Of a DNA stretch of 64,000 nt, positions 10,252 to 48,145 are shown piece after piece. The stretch's first letter is position 1, and every line of letters starts with the position of its first letter. The stretch lies in NCBI GenBank assembly GCA_004431415.1, contig QPMI01000133.1, positions 186,001-250,000 on the forward strand. Direction: 5' to 3'. The position numbers were made by a program, and so were the translations under genes. Source of the stretch: Cyanophora paradoxa CCMP329 (Eukaryota; Plantae; Glaucophyta). The notes beneath the pieces are model-generated. The model saw only the letters and a list, made by a program, of their open reading frames with translations, did not search any database and was not told the origin of the DNA.

Positions 10252-10764
10252 GACGTTCGCGACTTTGGACAAAAGTTCACGTCGACGTTCGCGACTTTGG
10301 ACAAAAGTTCACGTCGACGTTCGCGACTTTGGACAAAAGTTCACGTCCAAAATCCTCAAGCATGCTGGCGCACCCCCGCGCATGTCTCGCGCAATCTAGA
10401 CGCTAATATAGCCTCAATTACACTATAAGAGACGACTAGACTAGCTGCTAGCCAATTTGGGCGACGTTCTGAAGTTCGTGACTTTGGACAAAAGTTCACG
10501 TCCAAAATCCTCAAGCATGCTGGCGCATCCCCACGCGTGTGTGGCATGATCAAAGCGCTAGTATAGCCTCAATTACACCACAGGAGACTACTAGACTACT
10601 TGCTAGCCGATTCGGGCGCCGTTCTGAAGTTCGTGACTTTGGACAAAAGTTCACGTCCAAGGTCGCCTAGTGACTTTGGACAAAAGTTCACGTCCAAGGT
10701 CGCCTAGTGACTTTGGACAAAAGTTCACGTCCAAGGTCGCCTAGTGACTTTGGACAAAAGTTCA
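10252..10764. repeat. Array of 8 copies of GACTTTGGACAAAAGTTCA
   Basis: Copies start at 10261, 10293, 10325, 10480, 10635, 10672, 10709 and 10746 (spacings 32, 32, 155, 155, 37, 37, 37). Confidence 0.95.
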
Positions 10765-10774
10765 AGAGCAATCT

Positions 10775-11352: not shown

Positions 11353-11449
11353 GTTTGCTGCTCGCACTCTATGTAGCTAGATCTGGAGGAGTGAGCCGCC
11401 TGGGGAAGTTGAGATGGGCACCTTTGATGGAAGCATGGGTACGCTAGCG

Positions 11450-14698: not shown

Positions 14699-14716
14699 AT
14701 TAAATACATTCATTGT

Positions 14717-14892
14717 GAAAAATCAGCTATAGCTAGGTTTCTTGTGAGCCAAAGGCTACGCAAGCTGGCTATAGTCAACGCTTTTGAAAATCAGCTAGGT
14801 TTCTTGTGAGCCAAAGGCTACGCAAGCTAGCTTTAGTCAGCTTTCGAAAATCAGCTAGGTTTCTTGTGAGCCAAATGCTACGCAAGCTAGCT
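14717..14892. repeat. Three tandem units of about 60-69 bp downstream of Rep
   Basis: AGCTAGGTTTCTTGTGAGCCAAA(G/T)GCTACGCAAGCT occurs three times. Confidence 0.92.
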
Positions 14893-15050
14893 GGCATTCT
14901 CTCCTGAGGCCGCAGCAGACCGCGCGCAAGCAACCGGGGCCCCAAGTACACCCACACACGCCCTCCTAAACTCAGTTCCGATATCTCCCTAAACTAACGC
15001 CTAATCAACACGTCCACTCTAGCTCACTAATTTCGCTCAATGATCACGCT

Positions 15051-15124
15051 TATAGGGGTGGACCCCTGATGGTAAAACCAGACTTTGGGGGGCGGTCTGG
15101 TTTGAGGGGGGGTCCTCCCCTTTA
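15051..15124. repeat. GC-rich nested inverted repeat (hairpin) at a compositional junction
   Basis: Outer arms 15051-15066 and 15109-15124 (14/16 complementary). Inner arms AAACCAGAC 15075-15083 and GTCTGGTTT 15095-15103. Confidence 0.85.
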
Positions 15125-15614
15125 CAACATAGCAGAGACAGAGATAAAATCATTTACACTTTCTCCAACTTGCTATTTGAAAAGGACTTATTGCCCACGA
15201 CTGTGTGTCGCAAGACAGATTCCTAATCAAACAGGATCTTCAACATGTTCAAATGGTCAATCTGTCTTCATTTCACCACCTACTTACGGCACCTATCTTA
15301 TTGACAATGAAGGCAACTTTGGATCTTCACGATTTACAGCACCCGTTGCGGGTGTTTACCGTTTTTTCTATACAACTATGAGGATAGATAATCAGACTTC
15401 TTATGTAACTGTGTTTCGGCTACACATAAATGGAGTTGCATCCAATTACGAATTTAGTTGTTCACATAATGGATATGTTTCGCCGGCAATCACATATGAA
15501 ACATTAATAACTCTGAATACTGGGGACAATGTTTCAGTGGTGAACTCATCTGGTGTTACTATCACACTGGACACACGATCTTTCTTGGGTTGCTATCTGG
15601 TAAGCACCATATAA
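15125..15614 (+). pseudogene. 5'-truncated fibre gene retaining a C1q/TNF-like head domain
   Basis: SFTLSPTCYLK..PRLC and IDNEGNF..RFTAPVAGVYRF align with the C-terminal half of ORF 15637. Homology begins where the hairpin ends, and the annotated ATG lies inside the hairpin. Confidence 0.7.
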
Positions 15615-15636
15615 TATTGTCTGTATAGTATAAAGA

Positions 15637-16662
15637 ATGTCTACACAAATAGCCGTTCCTGTTTTCTGTTATGCCGCCCCAAAAATACATCAACTTAACC
15701 ACACAGTCACAGATGCAACCCCTGGTTTTATTTGCACAGAAACAACAGGAGCCGATTCATTTTCTCAAAACTCTGTGATTAGATGCAAAGAAATACGATG
15801 TGATCGCAATAACGGAAAGGTAAGAACCACAGGTTTAATAGTTTCAAATAAGAACCAAGTTCAATCGGGATCAATTGTCCCAGATTCAGCTATTTATGAT
15901 GATGTGGGAGGGTTCACCACACCTAAAATAGTTACTTTTGATAATACAAGTAATAACTCGGCTCTTGTGGTTAAAAGTGGAGGTGCCTACATTGGAGATG
16001 GAGCAAGGATAAATGGGAATCTCACAACTGAACAAATCACAGTAACAGGAGCAACTACATTTAATGATTTGGTGACAGCCAATGGGGGTGTGTATGTTCC
16101 TGGGGCGCAACAATCTATTGTGACAGCAACTACCAAAATAGTGACACCTGAAATAGACACAGGATCAAGCGCAAATCTGGTTTTGAAACGCAACAGTGAT
16201 GTTATGGCGACCCTGGAAGCCAATAGTTTCACCCTAAATACAGGTTGTTATTTAAAGTATGATTTTCAACCTCGATTCTGTGCGCAACTGGGTTACACAC
16301 ACACTGCAACAAGTGCTGCTGTTCTAATCAATTGGACAACCGTTTTTATTGATAACAGAGGTGCATTCAATACAGGTAATGGAAGATTTACAGCCCCTGT
16401 CGCTGGTCATTACAGACTTACAGCAAACTCTCAATCAACAACCTCATCTGCTGTAAATCTCACAATGCAAGTGAATGACACTAACCCTGGGGGTGTATCC
16501 CTCTTCACCTCAGGAACTTCGACTACAATTGGTGTAAAACCTCTATATATTAATGGTATACTCAATCTTGCCGCGGGAGAATATGTAACACTTGTCACAG
16601 GAACCACAGGTAGTTATTCAAGTCGAACAATGTTTACAGCTGAACTTCTAAGTATCACATAA
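15637..16662 (+). CDS. Fibre/spike protein with shared N-terminal domain, shaft and C1q-like head
   Basis: ALVVKSGGAYIGDG shaft motif. IDNRGAFNTGNGRFTAPVAGHYRL..LNLAAGEYVTL..FTAELL C1q signature. Confidence 0.8.
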   Translation: MSTQIAVPVFCYAAPKIHQLNHTVTDATPGFICTETTGADSFSQNSVIRCKEIRCDRNNGKVRTTGLIVSNKNQVQSGSIVPDSAIYDDVGGFTTPKIVTFDNTSNNSALVVKSGGAYIGDGARINGNLTTEQITVTGATTFNDLVTANGGVYVPGAQQSIVTATTKIVTPEIDTGSSANLVLKRNSDVMATLEANSFTLNTGCYLKYDFQPRFCAQLGYTHTATSAAVLINWTTVFIDNRGAFNTGNGRFTAPVAGHYRLTANSQSTTSSAVNLTMQVNDTNPGGVSLFTSGTSTTIGVKPLYINGILNLAAGEYVTLVTGTTGSYSSRTMFTAELLSIT

Positions 16663-16683
16663 ATTTCTTTCTATTAAGTAGGA

Positions 16684-16950
16684 ATGTCAAATATCTATCA
16701 AGTAGGTCTATCTGATACTGAGAAATTGGGAATGGAATATTGCGCTGCTTCTGTTCAGGATTGGATCGATAATGTGGTTCACAATAGGGCAAGAATTGCA
16801 ATCGATGATATTGTTCAAAAAGAAATTCAATCTTGCATCTCATCAGGAGTTCAAATACCAACCTCAAAGGAAGCGATTGTGTTACAGGCATTCCAAAGGG
16901 GAACTGTAAAGAAAGGCATAGAGTATAATAATCTCACAGAAGAGCAATAA
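16684..16950 (+). CDS. Small helical protein, possible fibre-associated chaperone
   Basis: Clean 88-aa ORF inside the fibre cassette (MEYCAASVQDWIDNVVHNRARIAIDDIV). Function is inferred from context only. Confidence 0.6.
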   Translation: MSNIYQVGLSDTEKLGMEYCAASVQDWIDNVVHNRARIAIDDIVQKEIQSCISSGVQIPTSKEAIVLQAFQRGTVKKGIEYNNLTEEQ

Positions 16951-16985
16951 ACATTATTTTTCTTTCCTTCTTAGTAAAAGAAGCA

Positions 16986-17840
16986 ATGGGCGAATATAAT
17001 CGAGTTCAACTTCCAATATATTCCCTTGGATCCCCAGCAATGCACTTTCGCCAGCATGAAGTTAATGATGAGGTTCGTGGTTTAGAATCCACAGAGAGAC
17101 CCAATTCCAATGGTAACTCCTTTGATAAGAATTCGATTATTCGAGTTAAAGAGCTGAGAGCTGATAAGAACTCAGGTGTGGTGAAAACAACTCGACTCCT
17201 GGTCTCAAATGCGAACTTTTTTCAACCTACTAATGGAGGTCCTGATGCTTACAGTGTTGATCTGAAAGCCCTTGATTTCGATAAGAATTCTGCTGCTGCT
17301 ACAATTCGTTCAGGTGGAGCATTTATTGGTGGTGGCTGTCGAGTTTCAGGTCAACTTTCTTCATCAATTTCGTATAATGATGTCCCAGATACTCTTGAAC
17401 AGAATGTGGAGAACCCACAACGAATTCGGTTCTATACACCAGTTGCACAGCAACCTTTTCTGCATTTCTATGTTGCATCATCTGTCACTCTTGAAAATTC
17501 AGAATTGGTTTCCATTACAGGAACTGATCGAGTGAGAAGGAATATTCCTCTTCCCACAGCAATGCTCTCAATGTGCAGAGCAAATAATAACCAACAGGGT
17601 CACAATTACCTATTCTTTGTTCAAGCATCAAATCATTTCGGTCGGGGATATTGTGTTTATAACAATCTGACATTTACTTATGATTTGTTTGTCACTGAGG
17701 TTGGAGTTTACAATACTATGATTATGGGACTGAGAACAGATATAGCAGCTGTTTCAGCACTTCGTGGGGTAAACATTGCAGATATCTTCACAACAGGGTT
17801 TTACCAGGAACCAGATGTGATTGATAACCCAACCCCATAA
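16986..17840 (+). CDS. Fibre-family paralogue with shared N-terminus and alternative C-terminal domain
   Basis: IIRVKELRADKNSGVVKTTRLLVSN..SGGAFIGGG shared with ORFs 15637 and 17864. Confidence 0.75.
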   Translation: MGEYNRVQLPIYSLGSPAMHFRQHEVNDEVRGLESTERPNSNGNSFDKNSIIRVKELRADKNSGVVKTTRLLVSNANFFQPTNGGPDAYSVDLKALDFDKNSAAATIRSGGAFIGGGCRVSGQLSSSISYNDVPDTLEQNVENPQRIRFYTPVAQQPFLHFYVASSVTLENSELVSITGTDRVRRNIPLPTAMLSMCRANNNQQGHNYLFFVQASNHFGRGYCVYNNLTFTYDLFVTEVGVYNTMIMGLRTDIAAVSALRGVNIADIFTTGFYQEPDVIDNPTP

Positions 17841-17863
17841 ATTATATATCTGTTTAATGTAAA

Positions 17864-18691
17864 ATGGCTGCCCCAGTTGAGAGAATTATTACACCCCAAC
17901 TATCATTAGCAGCACCTGCAAATCACGTTTTGCAGCATGCTACCTTTGATGATGTGGAAGGTCTCCAATCAACAGAAGTCCAACCTACAATGAATACCTT
18001 TGGTTCCACCCACAAACTGAGATTGCAGGAACTCAGGTGTGATAAAAATAATGGTATAGTTAAGACAACGAAACTCCTTGTCACCAATGCAAAGTTTTCT
18101 GCACATTATGGAGACCCAGACAGTTATGGTGATCCTCTTTCTACTTATTCTTTTGAATCTCGGTCGGGAGCTATTAACTGCAAAACGGGGGGAGCATATA
18201 TTGGTGATGGTCTTCGGATTGGTGGAGCTGTGGGTGCGCCTCTTTTCGTAAATGATCAACCCAACCCCATTGATCCCAACACCAGAATTCGCACCTATGT
18301 CCCCAGTATGAATGCACCATATATTATAAAGATCTTCCCAATTGTTGTGAATGAACAGACATCAGTAGTTGATTCTCTTGTTGAGATTGGTGACCACTAC
18401 AAGGTGGTCGTGGATATTCCACCAGATGTTTATGCTGTCTGTCAAGTAGAGGGTGGAACCCCAAATATTGCAGTTGTGATCACCCCATATGACAATTTCG
18501 GAATCGCTTATCATGGAGTGAATTTCGGTCTTGAAGATTACCAGTTCTTGGTGAGAGCCACCAGATTTGGTATCTACAAATGCATTCTCTATGCTGAGAG
18601 AACCGATGCTATTGCAAGACAGAATACATATGCAGAGTATTACGGCACAAATCGATACTTCCCCATTTTCGGGCAGGATACTGCTCCATAG
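17864..18691 (+). CDS. Fibre-family paralogue with shared N-terminus and alternative C-terminal domain
   Basis: LRLQELRCDKNNGIVKTTKLLVTN..TGGAYIGDG. C-terminus (RIRTYVP..NFGIAY..GIYKCILYAERTD) is homologous to that of ORF 16986. Confidence 0.75.
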   Translation: MAAPVERIITPQLSLAAPANHVLQHATFDDVEGLQSTEVQPTMNTFGSTHKLRLQELRCDKNNGIVKTTKLLVTNAKFSAHYGDPDSYGDPLSTYSFESRSGAINCKTGGAYIGDGLRIGGAVGAPLFVNDQPNPIDPNTRIRTYVPSMNAPYIIKIFPIVVNEQTSVVDSLVEIGDHYKVVVDIPPDVYAVCQVEGGTPNIAVVITPYDNFGIAYHGVNFGLEDYQFLVRATRFGIYKCILYAERTDAIARQNTYAEYYGTNRYFPIFGQDTAP

Positions 18692-18716
18692 AAATCTCAG
18701 GTATATATAGAGAGGG

Positions 18717-18989
18717 ATGGATGATAAAACAAAGAAATTCATAGAATCTGCAATGATGGTTCATGGTGATGCTAAATTCGATTATAGTGAGACAGTCTAT
18801 AAGAAAGCGCAAGAGAAGGTCTCTGTTAGATGCCTCAAATGCAACAAGATCCTCCAAACCTACCCATTTAATCATGTAAGGGGAAGTGGATGCAGAGAGT
18901 GCAACAAGAAATCCTCTCATGCTTACAGAAAAAAGACTACATCAGGAATTGTTATAGATGATAAACCAGTGGTATTATATTTCGATTAG
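18717..18989 (+). CDS. Stand-alone zinc-ribbon domain of the HGDKYDYS type (DUF723-like)
   Basis: FIESAMMVHGDAKFDYSETVY..VSVRCLKC..PFNHVRGSGCREC resembles the repeat module found on giant-virus and phage endonucleases. No nuclease domain is attached. Confidence 0.7.
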   Translation: MDDKTKKFIESAMMVHGDAKFDYSETVYKKAQEKVSVRCLKCNKILQTYPFNHVRGSGCRECNKKSSHAYRKKTTSGIVIDDKPVVLYFD

Positions 18990-19135
18990 ATCTTTGAGAG
19001 AGAAATGAGAATCTTTCCCCATTTTCCCTTGGTGATTATGCATGTGTCAAAACAGTTTGGACAGGTCTTGTGGTAGTGCAGCAGAATGATATCCACCAAC
19101 TCATAAGGTAGCACTCTTGCTAAGATGGTTCGCAT
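18986..19135 (-). CDS. 49-aa ORF with an F-box-like start (not in ORF track)
   Basis: MRTILARVLPYELVDIILLHYHKTCPNCFDTC...SKI* fills the gap between neighbouring genes. Confidence 0.4.
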   Translation of the reverse strand: MRTILARVLPYELVDIILLHYHKTCPNCFDTCIITKGKWGKILISLSKI

Positions 19136-19175
19136 TCTACCAATCGCGTTTTTAATTTTTCTAAATTATTCATAA

Positions 19176-19577
19176 ATGAATACTCATCGAGGCTTCCATG
19201 TGATGCTGGATTACAAATTCAGAACCCAATTAGCAGTAGGAGTGGAAAACTTGGAGACAACAACCAGGTGGTTAATGCAGTTCTTGCAAACTATTATTCA
19301 AGAGCAAGGTATTCGAGTAGTTCACAAGCATTGCGAGATTTTCGATGGTGGTATTTCTCCTCCTGGTTTTGCAATGGTTCTTCTGCTGGATGAGAGCCAC
19401 TGCACTGCTCACTGTTACTCAAATGAAGGTATGTTGGCGATTGATATATTCAGTTGTGGATTAGAAGCAGAGAGAAAAACCACGAGAGTATCTCATGAGA
19501 TAGATGAGAGAATAACAGGTGTGTTTTCAGGGTTGGAGAAATCGGAGAAACATAGAGTATTGCGATTTCCGAGTTAG
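19176..19577 (+). CDS. speD: Prokaryotic-type pyruvoyl-dependent S-adenosylmethionine decarboxylase family proenzyme
   Basis: GFHVMLD, PPGFAMVLLLDESHCTAHCY (E/SH self-cleavage site) and AIDIFSCG. 133 aa. Confidence 0.88.
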   Translation: MNTHRGFHVMLDYKFRTQLAVGVENLETTTRWLMQFLQTIIQEQGIRVVHKHCEIFDGGISPPGFAMVLLLDESHCTAHCYSNEGMLAIDIFSCGLEAERKTTRVSHEIDERITGVFSGLEKSEKHRVLRFPS

Positions 19578-19609
19578 TTGACACTGAGAAATTCAGAATT
19601 TCAGATGGT

Positions 19610-20092
19610 CTTACTGAAAATGGTCAGATAATCGGGTGTGACACCTATTTAATTGACTGTGACGCCTCTTTAATTGACTGTGACGCCTGTGACGCCTGTG
19701 ACGCCTACTTTCAAACTTTTTAAAATTTTCAAAAATTACAGACTTCTGAAAACAGCCGTCACAGCCGTCACAGGCGTCACACCCAATTAACAATGGAATC
19801 TCTTTCTCTTACTGAGATTTTCGAGAATATATTCTTGTCTTACTGAAATCCGTCTTGTGACACCTCTGACACCTACAAAACACTATCCATTAATCAACCT
19901 TTTTGAAAATGCGAAGTTGGCTTACTGGAAATGGTCTGCAATTTCGCTGTGACACCTAATTTAATTGAGTGTGACGCCTGTGACGCCTGTGACACCTACT
20001 TTCAAACTTTTTAAAATTTTCAAAAATGACAGACTTCTGAAAACAGGCGTCACAGCCGTCACAGGCGTCACAGACATTCCACCCCTCTTACT
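19610..20092. repeat. Two copies of a roughly 180-bp unit with inverted 9-bp iteron triplets around an AT-rich core
   Basis: (TGTGACGCC)x3, A/T tract, (GSCGTCACA)x3 at about 19610-19790 and about 19921-20092. Confidence 0.9.
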
Positions 20093-32495: not shown

Positions 32496-35400
32496 ATGGG
32501 CTGCGGCGCCAGCAGCGTTTGCGGGGGCGGGGGAAACGCCCCCCACGCGGTGCAAGAGCAGCTCGAGCCGGTTATCGATCCACCTGCGAACAACAGAAGT
32601 GATACGCGTGATGACGCAGCTGCGGGGAACGGGCATCTGGGCCCTCCGGATTCCGCGCTAGCTATAGCGCTGTCCGCAAAAGAAGCGCAAGCCCCGAAGG
32701 AGCAGCGCCCTAGCGGGCTCTACGGCATGTGCGAGCCGGAGGAGCTGAAGAAGATCCAGCGGGTCGAGCAAGTGCAGACCGCCGCGCAGCTCGCGGGCCT
32801 GCTCCGATCGGAGCTTGTTCGCGCCGCCGCTATCGCGAGCAAGGACCCGGAGAAGGAGGTGCCACCGATGCTTCGCGCGGTCGAAGACCTGGCTCGGAGA
32901 GGAAATGCGGAGCAAGTCCTACGGAACATCTGCGACGAAGGCGCGTACGTACACGTACAAGGACGCGCGGCCGCCGGGCCGGGTGCCCCGGCTGCGGACC
33001 TCGGGCCGCGCCCCCGCACCACGGCTGACCGTTCTAACACGTGCATTTGCTGTGCGCAGTGCTGAGCGCCTTCTCGGCCACCCAGTCGCTCGCGCTCTCG
33101 GGGGACATTGCGGCCCTCGTCCACTCCGGCGACCCCCACCTGTGCCGCAGGGTTCGACCCGCCGCGCCCCGCCCCGCCCGGCGCCCCGCCGCGCCGTCGA
33201 TCCGAGGGGCCGGCGCCGGCTCCTCAGCTGGTGGACGTGCTCCTGCGGAAAGCGAACAGTGCGGAGCTGGCAGACCTCGCGACCCTCTCCGCGCTCGCCT
33301 ACGCCGCGGGGCACCTTCCCCCAGACACGCTCTTCCCCTCCGACTGGACCGCCGTCCTCGACTTCGCATCCGAGCAGGCGAGCCGCCGCGCCGCGCCGCC
33401 CGCCGGCGCCGCCTGAAGCGGCGCGAACGCGCAGGTTGAGCTGCTGAGCGCGGAGGGGCGGGGCCTGGGCCCGAGCGACGCGGAGGCGCAGGTCGCCCTC
33501 GAGCTCACCGCCGCCGTCCTCGCCGCCTACGAGGCCGCCTCCAGCGGCCCCGCCGCCCCGCCGCCCCCGCCGCCGCCGGCGTCGCCGCCGGTGTCGCCGG
33601 CATCGCCGCCCCCGCCGCTGGGGAGGCCGACGACGCCGCCTCTGCCGCCTCGCCGCCCGCCGCCGCCGCCGCCGCCGGCGTCGCCGCGCCGGCTCCGAAA
33701 GGTGCGATATGACTCCCCCAACCCCCCTCCAACATCCAACGCCCCCCTCCCCCCCCTCTCCCTTCGCCTTACCCCTCCCCATCCCCCCCCCCCCAACACC
33801 TCTACTCATTCCTCTTCTCTCCCCAATCCCGCCACCCCTCCCCCTGAGCAGCGATGATCGGCAAATTCGCCCCCCCCTCCCCCCCCCCCGGATTTTTTCG
33901 TTCCTCACGCCCTCCCCCGCCCCCTTCTCCCGAGTCGCGCCCTCCCTTCCCCTTTACCCCTTTAGCCCTCCCCTCGCGCCCCCCTCCGCCCCCCCCCTTC
34001 CCCCACCTCGACAACTCTTCCTCACTTCGCGAAATTCGCGAAATTCCCCGCCTTTTTCCCCGCCCCGTATACGTACCCTTCTCCTCCACTTATCCAGTCG
34101 CGCCATCTTCTCCCCTTCCCCTTCACCCCCTCCCTCTCCTCCCTTTCCCCCCTCGTCCCTCCGTCCCTTTCCCCCCCTCCTCGCCCCCCCCAGCCGAAAG
34201 TCACTGGGTGCCGGCGCACAGGAACTTCGAAGCGGCTGGAAGTCGACGAGAAGCGAATTCAACTGCAGGCGCTGAGCGAGAAGCTTAAGCTCCTGGAGGG
34301 CCACGCCAAGGCCAAGGGGTGGTGGCGGGCGGAGGCGGCGGCGGTGATCGCGGGGCAGGCGCTCACGAGCGTCAGCAGCGGCGGCGAGCGCTTCGGAGAC
34401 GTCGTCCGCCGGTGCAAGGCCGCGGGTTCGACTTTTCATGAGCCTCGGAGCCTCCCAGTCTCCCGACTGAGCTGCACTTGTGACCGCCCAGGGCGAATCG
34501 TGAAGAAACTCTACAAGGCGAGCAAGGTCATCATGGAGGGCGTCTCCTCCATGGGCGCCACGACCGTCATCGACCTCGTCTTCTGGGCCAAGGCGCGCCG
34601 CCGCCGGACCGCCGACCGTGGATTCGAGCAGGGAACCCTGCGGGGCTCGTCGCCACTGACTGGCGAGCCCGCAGGACGTCGTGAGCGACGAAAAGGGGGG
34701 GATACTGGACGCGGCGCGGGAGATGTGGAAGGACGCGCGCATCGTCGTCGGCAAAGGCCCTCAGCTGCAGGGCCAGGGCCCCTGGTCCGCCCTCTCCCTC
34801 GCCCTCGCCCTCGCGACGCGGCCGCGGGGGGCGCGCTGACCGGCGGGGCGGGGCGGCAGGTACGCGCGGGCGAGGCTGATGGGGGCGCTGGCGGCGGGCG
34901 GGCAGCTGGAGGAGCTGGGGACGCTGCTGCGGGACAAGGGCGGGGAGGGGCTCGTGGCCTGCGCGCTGAACCGGCAACTCGCCCTCGTCCTCGCCTCCGC
35001 CCTCGTCCGCGTGCGCACCCACCGTGCCCGGCCAAGGCTCCGCGCATCCCGGCCCCGCCGGTGCATTCGGAATGTTCACATTGGCTCCTTGGAGGCAGGC
35101 GGCGGAGGGGACGGACGCGGCCCAGGCGGCGGCGGCGGTGGGCCTGCTCAAGAGCCTCGCCGAGAAGGCGGGGGAGCTGGGCGGGGCGGACGCGGCGCGG
35201 ATTGCGGCGAGAGCCCTCGGGGACCTGTCGCAGCTCGACGACGGCGGCAGCGGCGCGGCGCGGGCGGGCTGGGAAGCCCTCCAGAGCCTGGCGGAGTTCG
35301 CCAAGCGGGAGGGGGCGAAGCTCCCGGCGGCGGCGCAGGCGGCGGCCTCGGCCAGCGCGGCGGTCGGCTGCCTCGCCGGCTTCCGGCGCGGGGCGGTACG

Positions 35401-38400
35401 CGTCATCGAGGGCGGCGTCGGGCTCGCGGAGGACGTGGCCGAGATCGTCTCGGACGTGCCCGGCCTCGAACGGGCGGCCGGCGTGGCCGGCGAGCTCGCG
35501 GCGGCGGCGCGCCGCGCCAAGGACGCCCCGCTCGTGCAGGGCGCCCTGCGCGTCCTCGCCGCGCCCGAGGAGCTCCTGGGGCTGGCGTCGGCCGCGTCCT
35601 CCGCCGCGCCCCTGCAGCGGGGCTCGGGTTCTCGCGATCGGCCGCCGCCCCGGAAGTCCACGTCGACGTCGAAGTCGGCGCCGCCGGGCACGCTGAAGAG
35701 GGCGCCGCCCCTGCTCCCGACCCTGCTGGGGGCCGGGCAGCAGAGGAACGGCTACCTCGAGGAAGTGCTCAAGAAGTACAAAGTGGCGGTGCGCGCCCCG
35801 GCCGTCCGGATCCACGGCCGCCGCCTGCGCGCCTAAACGCCAACCGGGGCGGGGGTCGGGACTTTGGCGTGGCAGGTGGACGCGGCGCAGAAGGAGCTCG
35901 ATGTGAAGCGGGCGCACGTCCACGGGCGGAAGGAGGACCTGAATGACCCCAGAATCCTCCCGCTGCTCTTCGAGCTCTCCGGTTACGTCGAACTCTGGTT
36001 GCGCCGCCCGCTGTCTGCGGCTCCAGCCGCCCGGCCCGCTTCCCGCCCTCCCCTCTGAGCGTGGCCGCAGCGGGTCGTCGAAGCCATGCCGCAGCTGCCT
36101 GGAGATGGTGTGCGCGAGCCCGGCATTCGTCTTCGTCGCGAGCCGAGAGACGGCGAGCGACGCGGCCTGCCTCAAGGCCCTCGACGAGGGTGCGCCAGCT
36201 CTAGATCGAGACTAGCGCACTCACTGAGCTTCCTTGGCACCATCCGCAGCGATCGAGACGGGGCAGGAGGTCTTCCAGTTCTACTTGAACGGGGTGGAGA
36301 GCGTCCTCGAGGCGATGCCCGTCGGCGTCGACATGCGCCTCAGCCGCTTCGACGACGTGCGGCGGATAATTATAATCCCAATATCCTTCAATCCACCTCT
36401 CCGTCCTCTCCAGCGAGAGTTGCAGTTGATCGAGCGCCGCAGTGGCAGCTGGATGCGGAGGCTCGGTGGAAGCTCGACGTTGCTGAAGCCACCCGAGCCC
36501 GTCTGAATAAGGAAGACCCTCTAGAAAAGTTCGCGCGCGGCATGCAGATGAAGTGCCGCTACCCTCGCTTGCGCGGCGAGCCGGCGGCCAGTCGCCAGCG
36601 GGTCACAGCGCGCTGGTACGGCGGCGCTGAAGGCTCGAGCTCGAGCTCGGAGCCGCGGGCACCGCCGCCCGCCCCCAAATGGGTCGTCGAAGCGACGGCA
36701 ACAGCCGAAGCCTATTTCGGTGCTCGCGTCTTCTTCTGCCACGGCCACACCCCAGAGGACTCGAAGATCGTTCAAACGTACTCGGCTTCCTTGGAGCGCG
36801 TCGCGTCTTGCTGGTACGCCCGCTGGTAAATGCCCGCGCTGCTCATGATCATGGATAAACGCGCGGCGGCGCCGCAGGTCCGAGGCCGAGCACTGGGAGA
36901 AGGGGGAGCGCTGGGTCGACTTGGGTGCGCGTGACGCGTCGCATCGCCGCGCGTCTCTAGGTCTAATGTCGAGCTCACCTCCGCCGCAGTGGCCCGCGCC
37001 ATACGCAACTGCACCCATTTCGTCATCATTGTGTCCCCGGCCGCCGAGCTCGAGGATTCGCAGGTCCGCGGCCCCCGATTGGGTCTGAAAATCGCGACAG
37101 CAGCCTATCGGACCCCGATATATCGCGATATTGATCGACCCCGGTATTATATTAATCGATCACTCATGCACGGCCTCGGCAGCATTTCAAGGAAGAAGTC
37201 GCTTACGCGTGCAGCCGGGACTGCACATGCGCCCTGGTCGCCTTGCACCTGAAGCAGCCTGGGAAATCGACCGAAGACCTGTACCAGTGGATCGAGAAAC
37301 GCCTGGGGCGCGCCGCGCCCGGCCGCGTGCAGAGGATTCAGGTCCCCGTCGACACCAACCCAGTGCACGTAGCGTCCAAGCTCGAGACCGCTTTGAAAAC
37401 GCGACCCCGGGCGATTGCAGAGCGCGCGATCGTTGTGGCCGCACCCGCAGGCGCAGCTGCAGGCGCGGTCCCAGTTGCAGGCCCATCAGCAGCTGCAGCA
37501 GCCCGGCCGTACGCGTGGGCGGGGCCTCAGACGGGCCAGATGCAGCCGGTGCGTTGCGCTCTTCGATCTGTTGGCCCATGTATTTAGAGCTGATGCGGTG
37601 TGCAGGCAAACGCGCTCTTCTGGACGGAGGCGGGTGTCGACAACTGGATCCGATCGCAGGGGCTCCTCGAGCAGTGCGCTGCCTGCAGCCGGCGCCGTGC
37701 ACACGGCCGCGCTGGCTAGCGTTTTTAACTGATCGCGGAATGCACGGATCCCGGAGCAGATTTGCGGAGCGATTATCACACTTGGAAGGGAGGGGCCTCC
37801 TCTCGCTCACCGACTCGGCCCTGAAGCAGCTCGGCATCGACAACGTCGCTGCGCGCAAGCGCCTTCTGCTGAAGATTGCGACCTTGTCCGAGGCCGCACT
37901 GGAGAACTGCGACAAGGAGGTGCCGCGAAGCGATATATATGGAAGTGTTCTTCTGCAGCGATTCACGCCTGTGCAGAATGAGCCGCTGTGCTGGACCGAG
38001 GAGGAGGTCGTGGCCTGGGTCCGCTCAAAGGGGCCCCTCGCAAAGTGCGCGACGCGCAAGCGCTCTTCTCGTCTGCATCTGCCCCCCGCTCTGCTGTTTT
38101 TTTACGGTGGCACCAGGTTCGCCGACCTGTTCGCGTTCACGGGGGGCCCCGAGCTGCTCTCGCTCTCCGACGCGGACCTCGTGGACATGGGCGTGGACAG
38201 CTTCCCGGCGCGGCAGCGGCTCCTCGTCAAGATCGCCGAGCTTGAAGCGAAGGCAATCGCAAAGTCGCTCAAGCTGCACGGCGCGGCAAACGCTACCACA
38301 GAGTCACAGGTTGTCGAGGTGACGGCGCTGATCATGAGGCCATGCAGTCGTGTGTGCGTATTGCAATTGACAGAGATTCGCACCGGCAGGCTCCGGCTCC

Positions 38401-41400
38401 GGCTCCGGCACCAGCCGAGGTCGATGGCATCCGAGCATCGATCTCAAAAGTGCGCTAAGAATCCTATAATTATATAAACTAAAACTAAGGGCTCCTCGAG
38501 TTATTCACATAAATTCAAGCTTGCGGCTCCTTGAGTGTCCTTGAATTGCTTGTGGAGATCTAGAGTACTAGTATGCCCCTTCCTTTAAGATTCGAACATC
38601 ACCATCAGTTTTCGCAATCTTGATTCGTGCAACGGACATGTACAGTTTGCTGTGGAGGTGTCCGACGAGCTCCGCCAGGACCAGGACCTCGCGCTCTACG
38701 TCCCGCCCCTCGCCACCCCGGACCCCAAGCTGCCGCCCAAGGTGGCCCCCGAGCTCCCCGCTCTAGATCTGAAACTAGGCCTGCTGCGTGCACGCGGCTT
38801 CATTGTGACCCCGCCCCCCTCGAACAGCAACACGTGGACCTCCACGAAAGGGCGATGAAGTTTCTTAAGGCGCTGCGGCCCGGCGCCAACACCAACGTCA
38901 ACGCCGGCGACGCTGCAACCGGCCCCGCAAAGCCGAATTCGAAGCGTGTGTTGTTGTTACTGGGCGGCGCGGGCACGTCGAAGAGCACATTCGTCCGCTT
39001 TCTGGAGCGGGACGTCTGCGAGCAATGGGCAAAGTCGGAAGACAGTTTAGACCCGGAGCTGCCTGTCACAGTGCTGGTTTCGCTGCCGCAGCTCGTCAGC
39101 GCCATGGGCGGCGTGCAAAAAGGCCGAGGCCTGCGGCAGCACGTGGCCGCCAAACTCGGCGTGGCTTCAGAGGCGCTTCCAGCTCTCCGAGACAGGTACT
39201 CATGCATCTCGTCTAAATTTGTGTTGTTTCTTCGGATCTGTTTCGCTGATGCATGCGTCAGCTTCGGGCTCGTGCTTCTTCTCGATGGGTATGATGAGAT
39301 GGGCGTAAAAGACGGCGTGAATCTGTGGCAGGAGAACGGCGTTTCGGACTGGGCGAGCGGCGCGCTTCTCACATGCCGAACGGAGTTTCTCGCTTCGCTC
39401 CCCGTTGACAAGCCGCACGAGGTGCTTTCTTTTTCCTCTCCGATGTTCCGCTTTTCTGAGTGCTATCTGAGTCTGTCGATGCTCTCATTAATGATCCGAT
39501 GCTTTTGGAGTCGTGCCATTTGAGTCGCAATCGCGCCTTGCAGGCTTTCTTTGCTCCTGCCGAAAAGGACGGCAAACACGACGAGTCGGCGCTGGCGCAG
39601 CTGCACACTGTCCCCTTCACAATTAAGCAGGTGCACGGTTGCAGAACTTTTTAATGAGAGAACGGGTGTTCCGATTCAGCGCGAGATATTCAAATGCTCC
39701 GGTGCAGCGGGACGACTACCTTGAAAGCTACGTCAAGCACCACAAGGACGATGAAGCGGCATGGACCCTCCAGCAGTACCAGTCGGCCCTCGCAAATACT
39801 CCGGGCCTGGCCGCATTTGCCGAGAACCCTTTCTCCCTGTCAATGGCCGCCCGCGTCCTGCCCACCAAGTCCGCAGCTCGCAAGTAAACAGAGAGACACT
39901 GCACCGATGTGTTGCGCAGGACGACGACAGGAGGACGGCTCGGGATGCGGGACCTGTACCGGCTGTTCCTGCGGGACTGGCTGAGGCGCGAGCTGTATCG
40001 GGGCGGCGCCGAAATTCCGCGGGATGTCGAAGGTGCAGCGCAGAAGCTGAAGCTTGCATGCTTCTAGGGCTTACAGCGCAGCCTGCGGTCGGTTACAGTC
40101 CGGCAGCGGGCTGAGGACAAGTTCGTCGAGGAGGGGACGGAGCTCTGCAGGCGCCTTGCATGCATTCTCTTCCGCGTGCGTTCGGAATTCGGCTTCGATT
40201 TTACTCGATCGGTTTCGGAAACGTTCATTGCGCAGATGTCAGCAAGCCAGGCGACGATCCCGGACCCGCGGGTCCAGGGACAGCAGAAAGCGGATGCTGG
40301 CGCGATTTCGATGTCGAGCCCCGAGCAGGGCGCCCTCTGCGAGCTTCTAGGCGACCGCAGGACGCTCGACGTGCGCAACAGCTGCCCGCTGCGGCGGTGG
40401 CGGGCGGGCGGCTCGCTCGGCTTCTCGTTCGTCCACAAGACCCTCGGCGAGTTCCTCGTCGCCGAGGCCCTCCTCGAGTCGGTGCGCTCGCTCGCAGTCT
40501 GTTGAGGGCGCCGCTGTCCTTTTAATAGCGCCCGCAGCTGTCGGACGGCGGTAAAGAGTCGGCAGAGAAGGACGTGGCGATTAGCTTCGGAACGCGGTAT
40601 GTACATTTTGTTGTGTTTTCCGTGCTCTGTCCGACGCAGGGGGGCGCAGGAGCATCGTGGAGGAGACGACCCTCGTCCGCTTCCTGGCGGAGGCCGTGCA
40701 GCACGAGCCAGCAGCAGCTTTTGGAGACTCGCTGGTGAGCCTCGTGGAGCAGAGCCGCCACGTCGCGGGGGACGGCGACGGCGCGCCGGCGGTCCTCGCA
40801 GCCGCCAACGCCGCGACAGTGCTCGTCGCTGGTGGGCCACGGCCGGACTCTTCAAATGCATTCTCCACTGTCCTTACGCTGTGCAGCGCACTTTTCGCTG
40901 GCGGGGAGAGATCTGCGACGCGTGCGGATCCCGAAGGCGAACCTGTGGCGCCTGGAGGCGGCCGGGGCGAACCTGCAGGGGGCAGACATGCGTGGCTGCT
41001 CACTCGCCGAGGCGTGCCTCGCGGGGGCAGACCTCGGAAGGGCACGCCTCCAGGGCTGCCGAATCCCGCAGTGGCCCGCAATGATGCATCCGGCTCATGT
41101 GACCGCCGTGGCGTGGTTTCCGGTACATCTTTCGATCAGTTCAAAGAGCTCAAACACTCGCGTCCAGTTTCTGAGTGAGGCACAGGACGGGCGGCGTATT
41201 GTGACGGGGAGCGACGACCAGTCAGTGCGGGTGTGGGACGTGGAGACGGGGGCGGAGCTGCTGCAGCTGCAGGGCCCCGCGGCTGCAGCCACTGTCTACT
41301 CGGTGGCAGTCTCAGCGGTGCGCAGGGTGGGGAGCCAGTGCTAGGCTGAGGCAGCCAGATCTAGAGAGCGCGAGGCGATGGCAGTGCGGGGAGCCCCGTA

Positions 41401-44400
41401 CACGTGGGTAGCAATAGCGGCGCAGGCCTGGGGCCGGGGCCCCGAGCCAGGGCCAAGATCTAGAGGCATGCCGGCGGGTCCGGAAGGGAGTGGGGTGGCG
41501 TCGGGGCGCAGCGGAGGGGTGCTGACTCGACGGGGCGCGGTGGCGGGGCGCAGGACGGGCGGCGGATCGTATCAGGGAGCTGGGACGTCGACGACTCGGT
41601 GCGGGTGTGGGACGTGGAGACGCGGGCGGAGCTGCTGCAGCTGCAGAACCGCACATTCTGGGCGGTCTCGGCGGTGCGCAGGGCGGGGAGCCAGTGCAAG
41701 GCTGGGGCAGGCAGAGAGCGCAAGGGGATGGCGGTGCAGGGCGCCCTGCAGGAAGCAAAAAAGGCGAAGGGCCGGGGCCAGGGCCCCAAGCCAGAACCGA
41801 GATCTAGAGGAATGCGGGTCGGTTTGAAGGGGAGTGGGGCAGCGAAGGAGCTTGGCGGAGGGGCGCTGACGCAATGGGGCGTGGCGGCGGGGCGCAGGAC
41901 GGGCAACGGATTGTGTTGGGGAGCGATGACAAGTCGATACGGGTGTGGGACGTGGAGACAGGGGAGGAGCTGCTTCAGCTGCAGGGCTACAGGAGCGGCG
42001 TCACCTCGGTGGCAATCTCGGCGGTGCGCAGGGCTGGGAGCCAGCGCTAGACTGAGGCAGGCAGAGAGCATGAAGGGATGGCAGCGTGGGGTGGCCTGCG
42101 GATAGCAAAAAAGGCGAAGGGCCGGGGCCCGGGCCCCAAGCTTAAGCCAGGACCGAGATGTTGAGGCATGCCAACGGGTTTGATGGGGAGCGGGGCGGCG
42201 TAGAGGCGCGTCGGAGTTGTGCTGACTCAACGGGGCGCTGCGGCGGGGAGCAGGACGGGCGGCGGATTGTGTCGGGGAGCAACGATGACTCGGTGCGGGT
42301 GTGGGACGCGGAGACGGGGGCGGAGCTGCTGCAGCTGCAGGGCCACACACAACGCGTCACCTCGGTGGCAATCACGGTGGTGCGCAGGGCGGGGAGCCAG
42401 TGCTAGGCTGAGGCAGGCAGAGAGCGCAAGGGATGATCATGATGGCGCGTTGTGCTCCCGGAGTCCACGGGAAGCTAAAGAAGCAATGGGCCGGGGCCGG
42501 GGCCCCGAGCCAGGACCGAGGTCTAGAGGCGTGTGGGAAGGCTCAGAGGGGAGCCGGACAGCAAAGTAGCGCGGCGGTGGAGTGCTAACTCGATGGGGCA
42601 TGGCGCCGGGGCGCAGGACGGGCGGCGGATTGTGTCAGGGAGCGACGACAAGTCAGTGCGGGTGTGGGACGTGGAGACGGGGGCGGAGCTGCTGCAGCTG
42701 CAGGGCCACACAGAACACGTCACCTTGGTGGCGGTCTCGGCGGTGCGCAGGGCGGGGAGCAGTGCTAGGCTGAGGCAGGCAGATCTAGAGAGCGGGAGGC
42801 GATGGCAGTGCGGGGATCCCCGTGGGTCGCAATAGCGGCGAAGGGCCAGGGCCGGGGCCCCGAGCCAGGACCGAGGTCTAGATTCTTTACTATGCCGGCG
42901 GGTTCAGAGGGGAGGGAGGCAGTGTCGAGGCGAAGCAGAGGGGTGCTGACGCAATGGGGCGCGGCGGTGGGGCGCAGGACGGGGGACGAATCTTGTCGAG
43001 GAGCAATGACATCACGATATCGATGCGGGTGTGGGACGCGGAGACGGGGGCGGAGCTGCTGCAGCTGGAGGGCCGCACATTCTGGGCGGTCTCGGCGGTG
43101 CGCAGAGCAGGATGCTAGTGCTAGGCTGAGGCAGGCAGAGAGCGTGAGGGGATAGCGGCGGGAGGCGCCCCGCAGGAAGCAAAGAAGGTGAAGGGCCGGG
43201 GCCAAAGCCCCGAGCCAGGACCGGAATCTAGAAGCATGCGGGTTGGTTCCGGAGGGTAGAGGGGCGGCGTCAGACGGCGGCGGAGGGATGCTGACGCGAT
43301 GGGGCACGGCGGCGGGGCACAGGATGGGCGGCGAATCGTGTCGGCGAGCTCCCATGACTCGGTGCAGGTGTGGGACGTGGAGACGGGGGCGGAGCCGCTG
43401 CAGCTGCAGGGCCACACGGATAGCATCAACTCTGTGGCGGTCTCGACGGTACGTAGGGCGGGGAGCCAATGCTAGGCCGAGGCAGGCAAACTCTGAGAGA
43501 GCGCAAGGGGATGGCGGAGCGGGGGGCTCTGCGCAGTGCGGGTAAGAAAAGAGGCAAAGGGCCGGGGTCGCGATCAGGGCCGGGCTGGGGCCCCGAGCCA
43601 GGATCAATATCCAGAGGCATGCAGGCGGGTCGGGAGGGGAGCAGAGCAGTGTCGGAGCGCAGCGAAGGTGCACTGATGCGATGGGGCGGGGTGCCGGGGT
43701 GCAGGACGGGCGGCGGATTGTGTCGGGGAGCGACGACAAGTCAGTGCGGGTGTGGGACGCAGAGACTGGGGCGGAGCTGTTGCAGCTGCATGGCCACGCG
43801 TGGGGAGTCAACTCGGCGGCGGTCTCGGCGGTGCGCAGGGTGGGGAGCCAGTGCTAGTCTGTCACAGGAAGAGAGCGCAAGGGGAAGACAGCGCGGGGTG
43901 CCCAGCGGATAGCAAATTAAAAGAGGCAAAGGGCGGGGGCCGGGCCCCCGGGCCCCGAGCCAGGACCGAGATATAGAGGCATATGTTGCCGGCCGGTCGG
44001 GAGGGGAGCACAGCAGTGTTGGAGCACAGTGGAGGGGTGCTGACTCGATGGGGCGTGGCGGCGGGGCGCAGGACGGGCGGCGGATTGTGTCGGGGAGCCT
44101 CAAAAAGTCGATGCGGGTGTGGGACGCGGAGACGGGGGCGGAGCTGCTGCAGCTGCAGGGCCACAGGGGCACCGTCACATCAGTGGTGTTCTCGGTGGTG
44201 CGCAGGGCGGGGAGCCAGTGCTAGACTGAGGCAGGCAGAGAGCGCAATGGGGTGGCCGTGCGGGGAGCCCCCTGGGTTGCAATAGTGGCGAAGGCCTGGG
44301 GCCGGGGCCCCGAGCCAGGAATGAGATCTAGAGGGTCTAGAGGGGAGCTGGGCGGCGTCAGCGCACAGCCAAGGGGTGCTGACGCGATGGGGCGGGGTGC

Positions 44401-47400
44401 CGGGGCGCAGGACGGGCGGTGGATCGTGTCGGGCGGCTGGGACGACTTGGTACGGGTGTGGGATGCAGAGACAGGGGCGGAGCTGCTGCAGCTGCAGGGC
44501 CACGCGGGCGGCGTCACCTCGGTGGCGGTCTCGGTGGTGCGCAGGGCGGGGAGCCATTTCTAGGCTGAGGCAGGCAGAGAGTGTGAGGGGATGGCGGCGC
44601 AGGGCGGCCTGCGGGTAGCAATAGCGGCAAAGGGCCGGGGCTGTGGCCCCGAGCCAGGTCCAAGATGCATGTGGGCAGGTCCAGAAGAGAGTGGGTTGGC
44701 GTTTGGGGCGCGGTGGAGGGATGCTGACACGATTGGGCACGGTGTCGGGGTGCAGGACGGGCAGCGGATTGTGTCGGGGAGCACCGATGAGTCGGTGCGG
44801 GTGTGGGACGCAGAGACAGGGGCGGAGCTGCTGCAGCTGCATGGCCACACGGGCTTCGTCAACTCAGTGGCGGTCTCGGCGGTGCGCAGGGCGGGGAGCC
44901 AGTGCTAAGCCAAGGCAGGCACTGCGGCAGAGAGCGCAATGGGATGGCGGTGCGGGGAGCCCCCTGGGTAGCAATAGTGGCGAAGGCCTGGGGCCGGGGC
45001 CCCGAGCCAGGACCTAGATCTTGAGGCATGCCAACGGGTCCGATGGGGAGCGGGGCGGCGTAGAGGCGCGTCGGAGTTGTGCTGACTCAACGGGGCGCTG
45101 CGGCGGGGAGCAGGACGGGCGGCGGATTGTGTCGGGGAGCAACGATGACTCGGTGCGGGTGTGGGACGCGGAGACGGGGGCGGAGCTGCTGCAGCTGCAG
45201 GGCCACACACAACGCGTCACCTCGGTGGCAGTCTCGGCGGTGCGCAGGGCGGGGAGCCAGTGCTAGGCTGAGGCAGGCAGAGAGCGCAAGGGATGATCAT
45301 GATGGCGCGTTGTGCTCCCGGAGTCCACGGGAAGCTAAAGAAGCAATGTGCCGGGGCCGGGGCCCCAAGCCAGGACCGAGGTCTAGAGGCGTGTGGGAAG
45401 GCTCAGAGGGGAGCCGGACAGCAAAGTAGCGCGGCGGTGGAGCGCTCACTCGATGGGGCATGGCGCCGGGGCGCAGGACGGGCGGCGGATTGTGTCGGGG
45501 AGCGACGACAAGTCGATACGGTTGTGGGACGTGGAGACGGGGGCGGAGCTGCTGCAGCTGCAGGGCCACACACAACGCGTCACCTCGGTGGCAGTCTCGG
45601 CGGTGCGCAGGGCGGGGAGCAGTGCTAGGCTGAGGCAGGCAGATCTAGAGAGCGGGAGGCGATGGCAGTGCGGGGATCCCCGTGGGTAGCAATAGCGGCG
45701 AAGGGCCAGGGCCGGGGCCCCGAGCCAGGAAAAGGATCTAGAGGCATGCCAACAGCGGAGCGGGGCGGCGTCGGAGCGCAGCCGAGGGGCCCTGACGCGA
45801 TGGGGCGTGGCGGCGGGGTGCAGGATGGGCGGCGGATTGTGTCAGGGAGCGACGACCAGTCAGTGCGGGTGTGGGACGCGGAGACGGGGGCGGAGCTGCT
45901 GCCGCTGCAAGGCCACAGGGGCATTGTCAAATCGGTGGCGGTCCCGGTGGTGCGCATGCGCAGAGCAAGATGCCAGTGCTTCGCCACCGGGCTGAGGCAG
46001 ACAGAGAGCTTATACATAAGGGGATGGCGGGGCAGGGCGGCCCACAGGTAGCAAAAGATCAAGAGGGGAAGGGCCGGGGCCGGGGCCCCAAGCCGGGACC
46101 GGAATCTAGAGGAATGCCGGCGGGTCTGGAGGGAGCGGGGCAGTGGCGGGGCGCAGCAGAGGGGTCCTGACGCGATGGGGCGGGGTGCCGGGGAGCAGGA
46201 CGGGCGGCGAATTGTGTCAGGGAGCGACGACAAGTCGATACGGGTGTGGGACGTGGAGACGGGGGAGGAGCTGCTGCAGCTGCAGGGCCACGCGGGCAGT
46301 GTCAACTCGGTGGCAATCTCGTCGGTGCGCAGGGCAGGGAGCCAGTGCTAGGCTGAGGCAGGCAGAGAGCGCAAGGGGATGGCAGCGCTGGGTGGCCCGC
46401 AGGAAGCAAAAGAGGGGAAGGACCAGGGCGGGGGCCGCAAGCAAGGACCGAGATCTAGAGGCTGCGGGCATGCCGGCAGGTCTGGATAGTAAGAGAGTGG
46501 GGCAGCGTCCAGGGGCGGCAGAGGAGTGCTGACGCAATAGGGCACGGCGGCGGGGCGCAGGACCGACGGCGGATTGTGTCAGGGAGCGATGACAAGTCAG
46601 TGCGGGTGTGGGACGCAGAGATGGGGGCGGAGCTTCTGCAGCTGCAGGGCCACACGGGCAGCGTCAACTCGGTGGCAGTCTCGGCGGTGCGCAGGGCGGG
46701 GAGCCAGTGCTAGGCTGAGGCAGGCAGAGAGCGCAAGGGGATGGCGGAGCGGGGGGCTCTGCGCAGTGCGGGTAGCAAAAGAGGCAAAGGGCCGGGGCCG
46801 GGGCCCCGAGCCAGGACCAATATCTAGAGGCACGCGGGTCGGTCCAGAGGGGAGCGTGGGGGTGGGATGCTGGCACTGATGCGATGAGGTGCGGTCATGA
46901 TCATGGGATGCAGGACCGGCGGTGGATCGTGTCGGGGAGCGATGACTACTCGGTAAGGGTGTGGGACGCGGAGACGGGGGCGGAGCTGCTGCAGCTGCAG
47001 GGCCACACGGGCAGCATCATGTCGGTGGCGGTCTTTGCAGTGCGTGGCGTGGCTGCGGGGAGCCACGGCTAGGTTGCTCTCGCTAACCGATTGGCTTTTA
47101 TGCTTATGATCATAATAAAGCTTCTAGCTGCATTTTCTGACCTGATTGCACGGCACAGGACGGCGTCGTTACGCGCTCAGCTTCGGGCCGTGCACTGGCG
47201 TGGGCGCTCCCCTCTGGAGAGCCCACCGACCCGGCGTCCATCGATCCGGCGTTCAGTGATCCGGAGGAGGAGGAGAGCGAGGAGGAGGAGGAGGGTGAGG
47301 AGGGCGATCGCGCAAGTCGAAGTGTTCCATTCGCCGTCTGTTTGCTTCCCGTGCGCTCAGCCACCGCCATTAAAAATTATAGCTAGCGTCTTCGTTGGGC

Positions 47401-48108: not shown

Positions 48109-48145
<37 letters not shown>

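Follow-up and report, generated by a model that had tools for sequence, protein, structure and literature searches.

A stretch of Cyanophora paradoxa CCMP329 DNA (contig QPMI01000133.1, positions 186,001 to 250,000 of the forward strand; hereafter the window, 64,000 nucleotides) carries at 41186–47039 a tandem array of WD40 repeats in which every repeat has its own exon. It forms the C-terminus of a gene some 14 kb long, in which TIR-like, SAM, SAM, probable NACHT and pentapeptide parts precede 17.5 WD40 repeats. We assign a probability of roughly two in three to the reading that these repeats terminate an expressed NACHT-type (NLR-like) gene and are likely its ligand-sensing propeller domain.

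The array consists of 17 exons, each a multiple of three, devoid of stop codons, preceded by AG and followed by GT. Fourteen of them measure 126 nt, with E1 longer (132 nt) and E2 and E6 shorter (120 nt), in agreement with the initial annotation, which had described 17 stop-free phase-0 exons, mostly of 126 nt. Since all exons are multiples of three, every intron is in phase 0. Exons were called by translating from each AG|GAC start to a GTGCG-type donor, the start of E6 (42978) being set from the sequence. E2 and E6 are one shared variant, with two additional residues in the b-c loop (SGS-x-D-x-S) and four fewer after the d strand (LQLQ). Exon and intron together make up a 363-bp tandem unit, and Tandem Repeats Finder reports a single array at 41179–47034 (period 363, 16.4 copies, score 4687). 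A second array of this kind was not found elsewhere in the 64-kb window. E12 alone passes the Pfam WD40 model (PF00400, 33 bits, cutoff 27) and aligns over its full length with the solved WD40 propellers Tako8, 2YMU, Fbw7 and WDR5. Upstream of E1 and separated from it by a predicted short intron, a half-blade completes the first repeat; at the same position the paralogs read AVAWLPDGRRI, unbroken.

Evidence of splicing comes from four sequencing runs, X15–X18, guessed to be RNA and hence called RNA-like here; they were treated as RNA because their contigs carry GT..AG joints. X13 is a DNA run. In RNA-like contigs from X16–X18, neighbouring exons are linked unambiguously over 7 of the 16 introns (I1, I2, I4, I6, I10, I14 and I15), with sides of 38–120 bases, and the joints fall exactly on the predicted exon borders. 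Bins in I5 and I8 that show no RNA-like cover were given no weight. X13 contigs read through the introns, for example over 41247–41570. The exon-intron structure is established for these seven introns and predicted by homology for the remainder. The units are as follows.

41096–41122, + strand: first half-blade HVTAVAWFP, completing the first WD40 repeat with E1; read from the sequence
41123–41185, + strand: predicted 63-nt phase-0 GT..AG intron before E1, from the sequence and paralog proteins
41186–41317, + strand: E1, 132 nt; joined to E2 in X17 and X18
41318–41553, + strand: I1, 236 nt; GT..AG joint in X17 (side 70) and X18 (side 48)
41554–41673, + strand: E2, 120 nt, variant (SWDVDDS ... 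NRTFWAVSA); within an RNA-like contig reading E1-E2-E3 (X17 record 16)
41674–41897, + strand: I2, 224 nt; GT..AG joint in X17 (side 120) and X18 (side 63)
41898–42023, + strand: E3, 126 nt; open unit and RNA-like contig
42024–42253, + strand: I3, 230 nt; predicted from GT..AG and homology to the other introns
42254–42379, + strand: E4, 126 nt; open unit, 98% identical to E12
42380–42616, + strand: I4, 237 nt; GT..AG joint in X18 (side 38), 98% identical to I12
42617–42742, + strand: E5, 126 nt; open unit
42743–42977, + strand: I5, 235 nt; predicted
42978–43097, + strand: E6, 120 nt, variant of the E2 type; joined to E7
43098–43322, + strand: I6, 225 nt; GT..AG joint in X16 (side 57) and X18 (side 39)
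43323–43448, + strand: E7, 126 nt; open unit and RNA-like contig
43449–43704, + strand: I7, 256 nt; donor used (X16), acceptor ambiguous because the 29 bases past the joint fit E8 and E13 alike
43705–43830, + strand: E8, 126 nt; open unit
43831–44071, + strand: I8, 241 nt; loose contig ends at 43831 read as a DG exon start
44072–44197, + strand: E9, 126 nt; open unit
44198–44410, + strand: I9, 213 nt; predicted
44411–44536, + strand: E10, 126 nt; open unit
44537–44755, + strand: I10, 219 nt; GT..AG joint in X16 (side 56)
44756–44881, + strand: E11, 126 nt; open unit
44882–45113, + strand: I11, 232 nt; loose contig ends at 44882 read as a DG exon start
45114–45239, + strand: E12, 126 nt; open unit, passes Pfam WD40
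45240–45476, + strand: I12, 237 nt; predicted
45477–45602, + strand: E13, 126 nt; open unit
45603–45823, + strand: I13, 221 nt; predicted, the joint 45238>45823 fitting E12 or E13 as donor
45824–45949, + strand: E14, 126 nt; open unit
45950–46198, + strand: I14, 249 nt; GT..AG joint in X16 (side 69)
46199–46324, + strand: E15, 126 nt; open unit
46325–46560, + strand: I15, 236 nt; GT..AG joint in X16 (side 56)
46561–46686, + strand: E16, 126 nt; open unit
46687–46913, + strand: I16, 227 nt; predicted
46914–47072, + strand: E17 (126 nt) with a predicted 10-residue tail and TAG at 47070–47072, AATAAA at 47114; 3′ end predicted

The 16 introns (213–256 nt, GT..AG) can be aligned end to end. Their mean pairwise identity at the DNA level is 78%, compared with 82% for the exons, and the earlier proposal that they are homologous to each other thus holds over their whole length.

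Variation between repeats is concentrated at a few positions. When the 14 canonical units are compared, codons 10, 12, 32, 33, 34 and 36 of the 42-codon unit show the highest entropy. Amino-acid identity is 29% at these six positions and 83% at the other 36, and 13 of the 14 units carry a distinct six-residue combination. Every one of the peptide variants that had been listed after SG and after GH is present. The same six positions rank highest in 15 repeats of the paralogs P0003–P0005 (Spearman 0.57, p = 8e-5). A hidden Markov model of the unit was run over 189 proteins, which yielded 121 fungal, bacterial and metagenomic proteins with at least eight near-complete units, including basidiomycete NACHT-WD40 and bacterial kinase-WD40 proteins. 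The following positions belong to the six most variable of a protein: 34 (in 114 of the 121 proteins), 10 (in 110), 36 (in 109), 33 (in 93) and 12 (in 77). Since the same positions vary across these proteins, the pattern belongs to the whole class of arrays and not to this locus alone. WDR5 and Fbw7 have known contact residues immediately ahead of the conserved Asp and at the third and fifth places after GH. In Podospora HET-E and HET-D, four codons are described as positively selected, two (7, 9) in the d-a loop and two (25, 27) in the b-c turn, all at the propeller's top interaction surface (PMC1805685). The fungal spacing of 18 and the loops in which these codons are placed (PMC1805685) correspond to positions 34 and 36 of a window unit followed by positions 10 and 12 of the next.

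The units exchange sequence by duplication and recombination. Units 4–5 had been reported to nearly duplicate units 12–13, and the two copies indeed differ at only 17 of 689 bases, with no gaps.

42182–42870, + strand: duplicate core copy A (end of I3, E4, I4, E5, start of I5); 17/689 differences from copy B, gapless
45042–45730, + strand: duplicate core copy B (end of I11, E12, I12, E13, start of I13); 97.5% identical to copy A

The four-gamete test fails for 42% of pairs among 63 biallelic informative sites, and compatibility between neighbouring sites is higher than after shuffling (P = 0.0002, 0.0036 and 0.0004 for 5, 10 and 20 neighbours). Together with the recent two-unit duplication, this test supports the initial annotation in its view that the array diversifies by exchange between units. 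E13 itself looks mosaic: its first half follows E5, its SIR patch equals that of E3 and E15, and its GH-TQRVT segment equals that of E12 and E4.

Using the Nei-Gojobori method, nonsynonymous (dN) and synonymous (dS) divergence were 0.71 and 0.69 at the six codons, and 0.09 and 0.22 in the scaffold. A site-wise dN/dS comparison had been suggested as a check. By the present count, dN at the six codons exceeds the scaffold dS, but against their own silent sites the ratio is about 1.0, the excess existing only against other sites. The variable codons might therefore be regarded as unconstrained loop residues of a structural WD40 scaffold, reflecting relaxed constraint in an otherwise homogenised repeat and having no role in recognition; variation at the same positions in nearly all related arrays, whatever the partner domain and including the bacterial kinase-WD40 proteins, would be compatible with this explanation. 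We consider it unlikely on the basis of three observations. Firstly, neutral sites should not outpace introns. Counted on trees built from introns or from introns and exons, parsimony steps per site amount to 3.3–3.5 for the first and second positions of the six codons, 1.4 for introns (188 gap-free sites), 1.3–1.4 for scaffold third positions and 0.6 for scaffold first and second positions. The six codons thus change about 2.4 times faster than introns, and 12 random intron or scaffold third positions reach the six-codon mean with P ≤ 4e-5 by resampling. Secondly, concerted evolution should homogenise the variable codons too, yet nearly every unit (13/14) keeps its own combination. Finally, the differences within the young, 97.5% identical duplicate are concentrated in exons (12 of 252 exon sites versus 5 of 437 intron sites, Fisher p = 0.0045), and 9 of the 12 exon changes alter the protein, as read from the listed differences. 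As rate comparisons rather than a formal site-model test, these results favour selection for diversity.

A different use of the exon-per-repeat layout would be alternative splicing, each donor pairing with any later acceptor in frame to give many isoforms with different sets of blades. We regard this as improbable, even though the splice signals of the 16 introns are near-identical and, all exons being phase 0, skipping stays in frame. Four non-consecutive joints were encountered. In 43447>45476 the 29-base side is identical in E8 and E13, and in 45238>45823 the donor side is identical in E12 and E13. The joint 44534>45476 has TG..CA ends, a side of 23 bases and an additional letter, and 44503>44792 is a GC..AG joint inside exons, found on a single contig of depth 8. 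In contrast, all seven joints with an unambiguous side of at least 38 bases link neighbouring exons. Exon skipping, put forward earlier as a source of diversity, is therefore not supported, because each non-consecutive joint is either ambiguous or short-sided (23–34 bases), or non-canonical on one low-depth contig; assembled short-read contigs can neither reveal nor exclude rare isoforms. Of the combinatorial ligand-binding surface also proposed there, one part stands, since the variable residues map to two predicted top-face loops (d-a and b-c) and change faster than introns and silent sites, but exon skipping as a means of generating it does not. That the phase-0 cassettes are used to mix blades, whether through regulated skipping of exons or through somatic recombination of the homologous introns with each other, appears very improbable; if true, a single-celled alga would make a varied receptor repertoire from one gene.

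The idea that the array is a decaying or misassembled repeat without function could invoke the degenerate units E2 and E6 and a few X13 DNA contigs that join units otherwise (46667>45584 and 42643>43020), but it is hardly credible, as 17 of 17 exons are open, spliced RNA-like contigs exist, the variant E2 is itself spliced in between E1 and E3, and 14 DNA runs of one organism contain 85–87% of the sampled words from the 9.9-kb stretch 37200–47100. In the X13 contig with the joint 42643>43020 (window 42643–43396), unit 6 has a form that resembles unit 2 over its first half, with 15 other letters and 6 substitutions. Further X13 joints are 46667>45584, which leads from E16 to the end of E13 over 37 shared bases, and 42874>43609. 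All of these may stem from strain variation, from paralogs or from the path taken in assembly.

The gene around the array was delineated by comparison with relatives. P0127 and P0002 can be followed collinearly along the window from about 32727 as far as E1. These two and the other relatives, P0003–P0005, are EukProt Cyanophora paradoxa proteins; TIR_2, SAM, pentapeptide and WD40 domains are found in the proteins collinear with the gene.

32727–36413, + strand: predicted start MCEPEELKK (32727) and long N-terminal region of no assigned family; collinear in tblastn with P0127 residues 1–858 and with P0002
36425–37353, + strand: TIR-like region over several exons, with RVFFCH (36725), IRNCTHFV (37001) and EEVAYAC (37192); collinear with P0002 residues 694–905
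37737–38321, + strand: two SAM domains; SAM_1 on the open reading frame (ORF) 37089–38477, residues 233–266, the second copy by homology to P0002 and P0127
38828–40490, + strand: probable NACHT-type NTPase, from motifs and relatives
40937–41056, + strand: pentapeptide repeats; Pfam PF00805, 34 bits, cutoff 20.2, ORF 40739–41344, residues 75–106

Ten upstream introns, their borders fixed by the GT..AG rule, are seen as GT..AG joints in X15–X18.

37064–37182, + strand: first upstream intron
37920–37976, + strand: second upstream intron
38045–38116, + strand: third upstream intron
38319–38389, + strand: fourth upstream intron
38450–38645, + strand: fifth upstream intron
38742–38827, + strand: sixth upstream intron
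39196–39261, + strand: seventh upstream intron
39422–39543, + strand: eighth upstream intron
39631–39707, + strand: ninth upstream intron
39869–39919, + strand: tenth upstream intron

SAM_1 (PF00536) passes Pfam on the window ORF with 35.3 bits (cutoff 23). Pfam TIR_2 (PF13676) matches P0002 at residues 787–865 with 40 bits and P0003 with 61.4 bits (cutoff 28). The NTPase contains a Walker A motif, GGAGTSKST (38963–38989), a Walker B motif, LLLDGYDE (39275–39298), and a winged-helix motif (40428–40472); the first two we take to be typical NACHT forms. Pfam NACHT matches 20 of 22 relatives of the window NTPase, and an isolated piece of the paralog P0003 scores 28.8 bits (cutoff 26.7). When the NTPase family profile was compared with solved structures, NLRC4 was the best match (E 2.7e-7); a single-sequence search of solved structures with the paralog NACHT piece gave no match. 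Judging from paralogs and motifs, the NTPase is probably NACHT-class. PADLOC and NCBIfam returned only weak TIR or pentapeptide matches.

The ORF with GGAGTSKST and LLLDGYDE finds relatives solely among EukProt Cyanophora paradoxa proteins, and these relatives form a gene family in that species. Their gene names follow the style of the C. paradoxa genome paper (PMC6704402). Outside the repeats the closest relatives are only about 50–85% identical, so the public protein models do not include this exact gene. Over the pentapeptide and first WD40 part (40937–41317), P0003 and P0004 are near-identical to the window, and the NTPase part (38828–39418) has its nearest relatives in P0127 and P0002, a pattern suggesting that the sensor end is exchanged or homogenised between paralogs with different front ends. 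The models of P0003, P0004, P0005 and P0127 read into introns or translate intron pieces between repeats, leaving their WD40 arrays truncated or mis-spliced in the annotation. Paralog models hold inter-repeat peptides such as SQDRSRDLEACGR, and several end in VRRAGSQC, which corresponds to read-through into introns of the window type. Since these peptides match intron read-through, the same intron family would accompany the repeats at other loci, a deduction that draws on peptides rather than on DNA sequence of the loci concerned.

In the mechanism that we propose, selection for new binding specificities would keep the six predicted top-face codons diverse. Unequal crossover anywhere in the unit would add or remove whole repeats in frame, because the exons are symmetric and the introns homologous. 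Binding of a ligand would free the NACHT part to oligomerise, and the TIR-like and SAM domains at the N-terminus would pass on the signal, much as other NLR-type receptors do.

Besides the dN/dS ratio of about 1.0 at the six codons, several points weigh against a ligand-sensing receptor. The window's own NTPase ORF pieces have no match to Pfam NACHT (PF05729). Likewise, the four ORF pieces of its TIR-like region have no Pfam match, because they are split by introns, and the TIR-like assignment, as that of the NTPase, is a probable one drawn from paralogs and motifs. An immune role is suggested by the architecture. Alignment with known WD40 repeats and the fungal paper would place the six codons in the d-a loop and b-c turn, at the propeller's top face. 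The site analyses cover the 14 canonical units, with E1, E2 and E6 omitted for their length. The rate test is semi-independent, since the six-codon set was taken from paralogs that possibly exchange repeats, and recombination inflates parsimony step counts.

The likeness to fungal HNWD genes and to brown-algal exon-per-repeat genes, noted in the initial annotation, proves apt. As in the Podospora anserina NWD/HNWD proteins (HET-E, HET-D and HET-R), a NACHT domain, probable in the window gene, is followed by highly similar 42-residue WD40 units, units are exchanged within and between genes, and positions in the d-a loop and b-c turn diversify with the same spacing (PMC1805685). The window unit is 60–76% identical to units of basidiomycete NACHT-WD40 proteins. 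Unlike HNWD proteins, the window gene has a TIR-like and two-SAM N-terminus in place of HET, a pentapeptide stretch before the WD40 repeats and an algal host, and each of its repeats is an exon separated from the next by homologous introns of 213–256 nt. To our knowledge, the fungal NWD/HNWD arrays lack such inter-repeat introns. The HET family is not among the Pfam matches of the window ORFs or P0003, nor among the best 25 families of P0002 and P0127. The array is thus not an HNWD member, because it lacks the HET domain and has a TIR-like/SAM N-terminus instead. By analogy, it probably works like the sensor domain of the fungal NWD/HNWD receptors.

The Ectocarpus ROCO-LRR and NB-ARC-TPR genes likewise have one repeat per phase-0 exon of constant length, with exon shuffling and positively selected surface residues (PMC3341825). 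In the window array, every one of the 17 exons has a length divisible by three, 14 of them measuring 126 nt, and unit shuffling and duplication are seen in the 689-base duplicate (97.5%) and in the four-gamete neighbour test (P = 0.0002–0.004). The Ectocarpus repeats are LRR (72-nt exons) or TPR combined with ROCO or NB-ARC in another lineage, whereas the window combines WD40 with a probable NACHT domain. In addition, the window introns are about 78% alike, the repeated module being the whole exon-plus-intron unit.

The core order NACHT (probable in the window), pentapeptide, WD40 is shared with NLRs of Mortierellomycota and Mycoavidus (PMC11291939), and the Mycoavidus protein P0007 weakly matches the window NTPase (E 4.9e-4 and 1.6e-4). 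The similarity is distant, however, and the description of those proteins mentions neither a TIR/SAM N-terminus nor an exon structure (PMC11291939). In the red alga Chondrus crispus, another archaeplastid alga, TIR, nucleotide-binding and WD40 domains also occur together: 58 of 61 NB genes are NB-WD40, and 23 of those 58 have a TIR domain (PMC7145615). That survey was built on the NB (NB-ARC) Pfam domain (PMC7145615), whereas the window NTPase is probably NACHT-class.

What is new seems to be the combination, namely a hypervariable WD40 array of NLR type built from exon-plus-intron cassettes, in a glaucophyte-like alga and in a multigene family. We found no description of this gene family or of one-repeat-per-exon WD40 arrays in the literature, of which our coverage was partial, and the supplements of the C. 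paradoxa genome paper may list such families. An exact metagenome scan with a 36-base exon core returned no loci. The locus extends the hypervariable NACHT-WD40 design of fungi and bacteria to a glaucophyte-like alga, and joins it to one-repeat-per-exon packaging, so far described for brown-algal LRR/TPR receptors. As the introns are co-amplified with the exons, the locus is a natural test of whether introns make the gain, loss or exchange of repeats frame-safe. Since public C. paradoxa models read into or translate introns, the family is probably under-annotated. Cyanophora can be cultured, hence isoforms and copy number are directly addressable.

Introns of the array start with GTGCGCAG, the exceptions being I7 (GTACGTAG) and I14 (GTGCGCAT). 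They end in GCAG or ACAG, and in most of them CTGAC, or a sequence differing from it by a single base, lies some 30 nt ahead of the acceptor. The AGATCT/TCTAGA motif that had been attributed to the introns is present in exact form in 12 of 16, but the 9-mer AGATCTAGA is not array-specific: 13 copies lie in the window (0.1 expected), 7 in the array and 6 outside. The latter are at 29517, 38556, 48433, 48638, 48988 and 49402, with unrelated flanks. Palindromic hexamers are over-represented across the window (2072 observed versus 1636 expected under a 4th-order model), and TAGCTA, TCTAGA, AAGCTT, AACGTT and TGATCA are enriched 1.7–4 times. A conserved RNA structure in the introns was considered and rejected, the covariation term being only -0.37 kcal/mol.

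The C. paradoxa genome is reported to have 67.6% GC and a mean intron of 86 bp (PMC6704402). GC content is 40–52% in the first 20,000 positions of the window (1–20000) and 60–79% beyond 28 kb; the low-GC part holds short tandem repeats at 10252–10764, 11450–11909 and 14731–14892. Just 3′ of the gene, a run of GGA/GAG triplets codes for an acidic stretch at 47263–47303, and a 33-base C run is located at 48111–48143.

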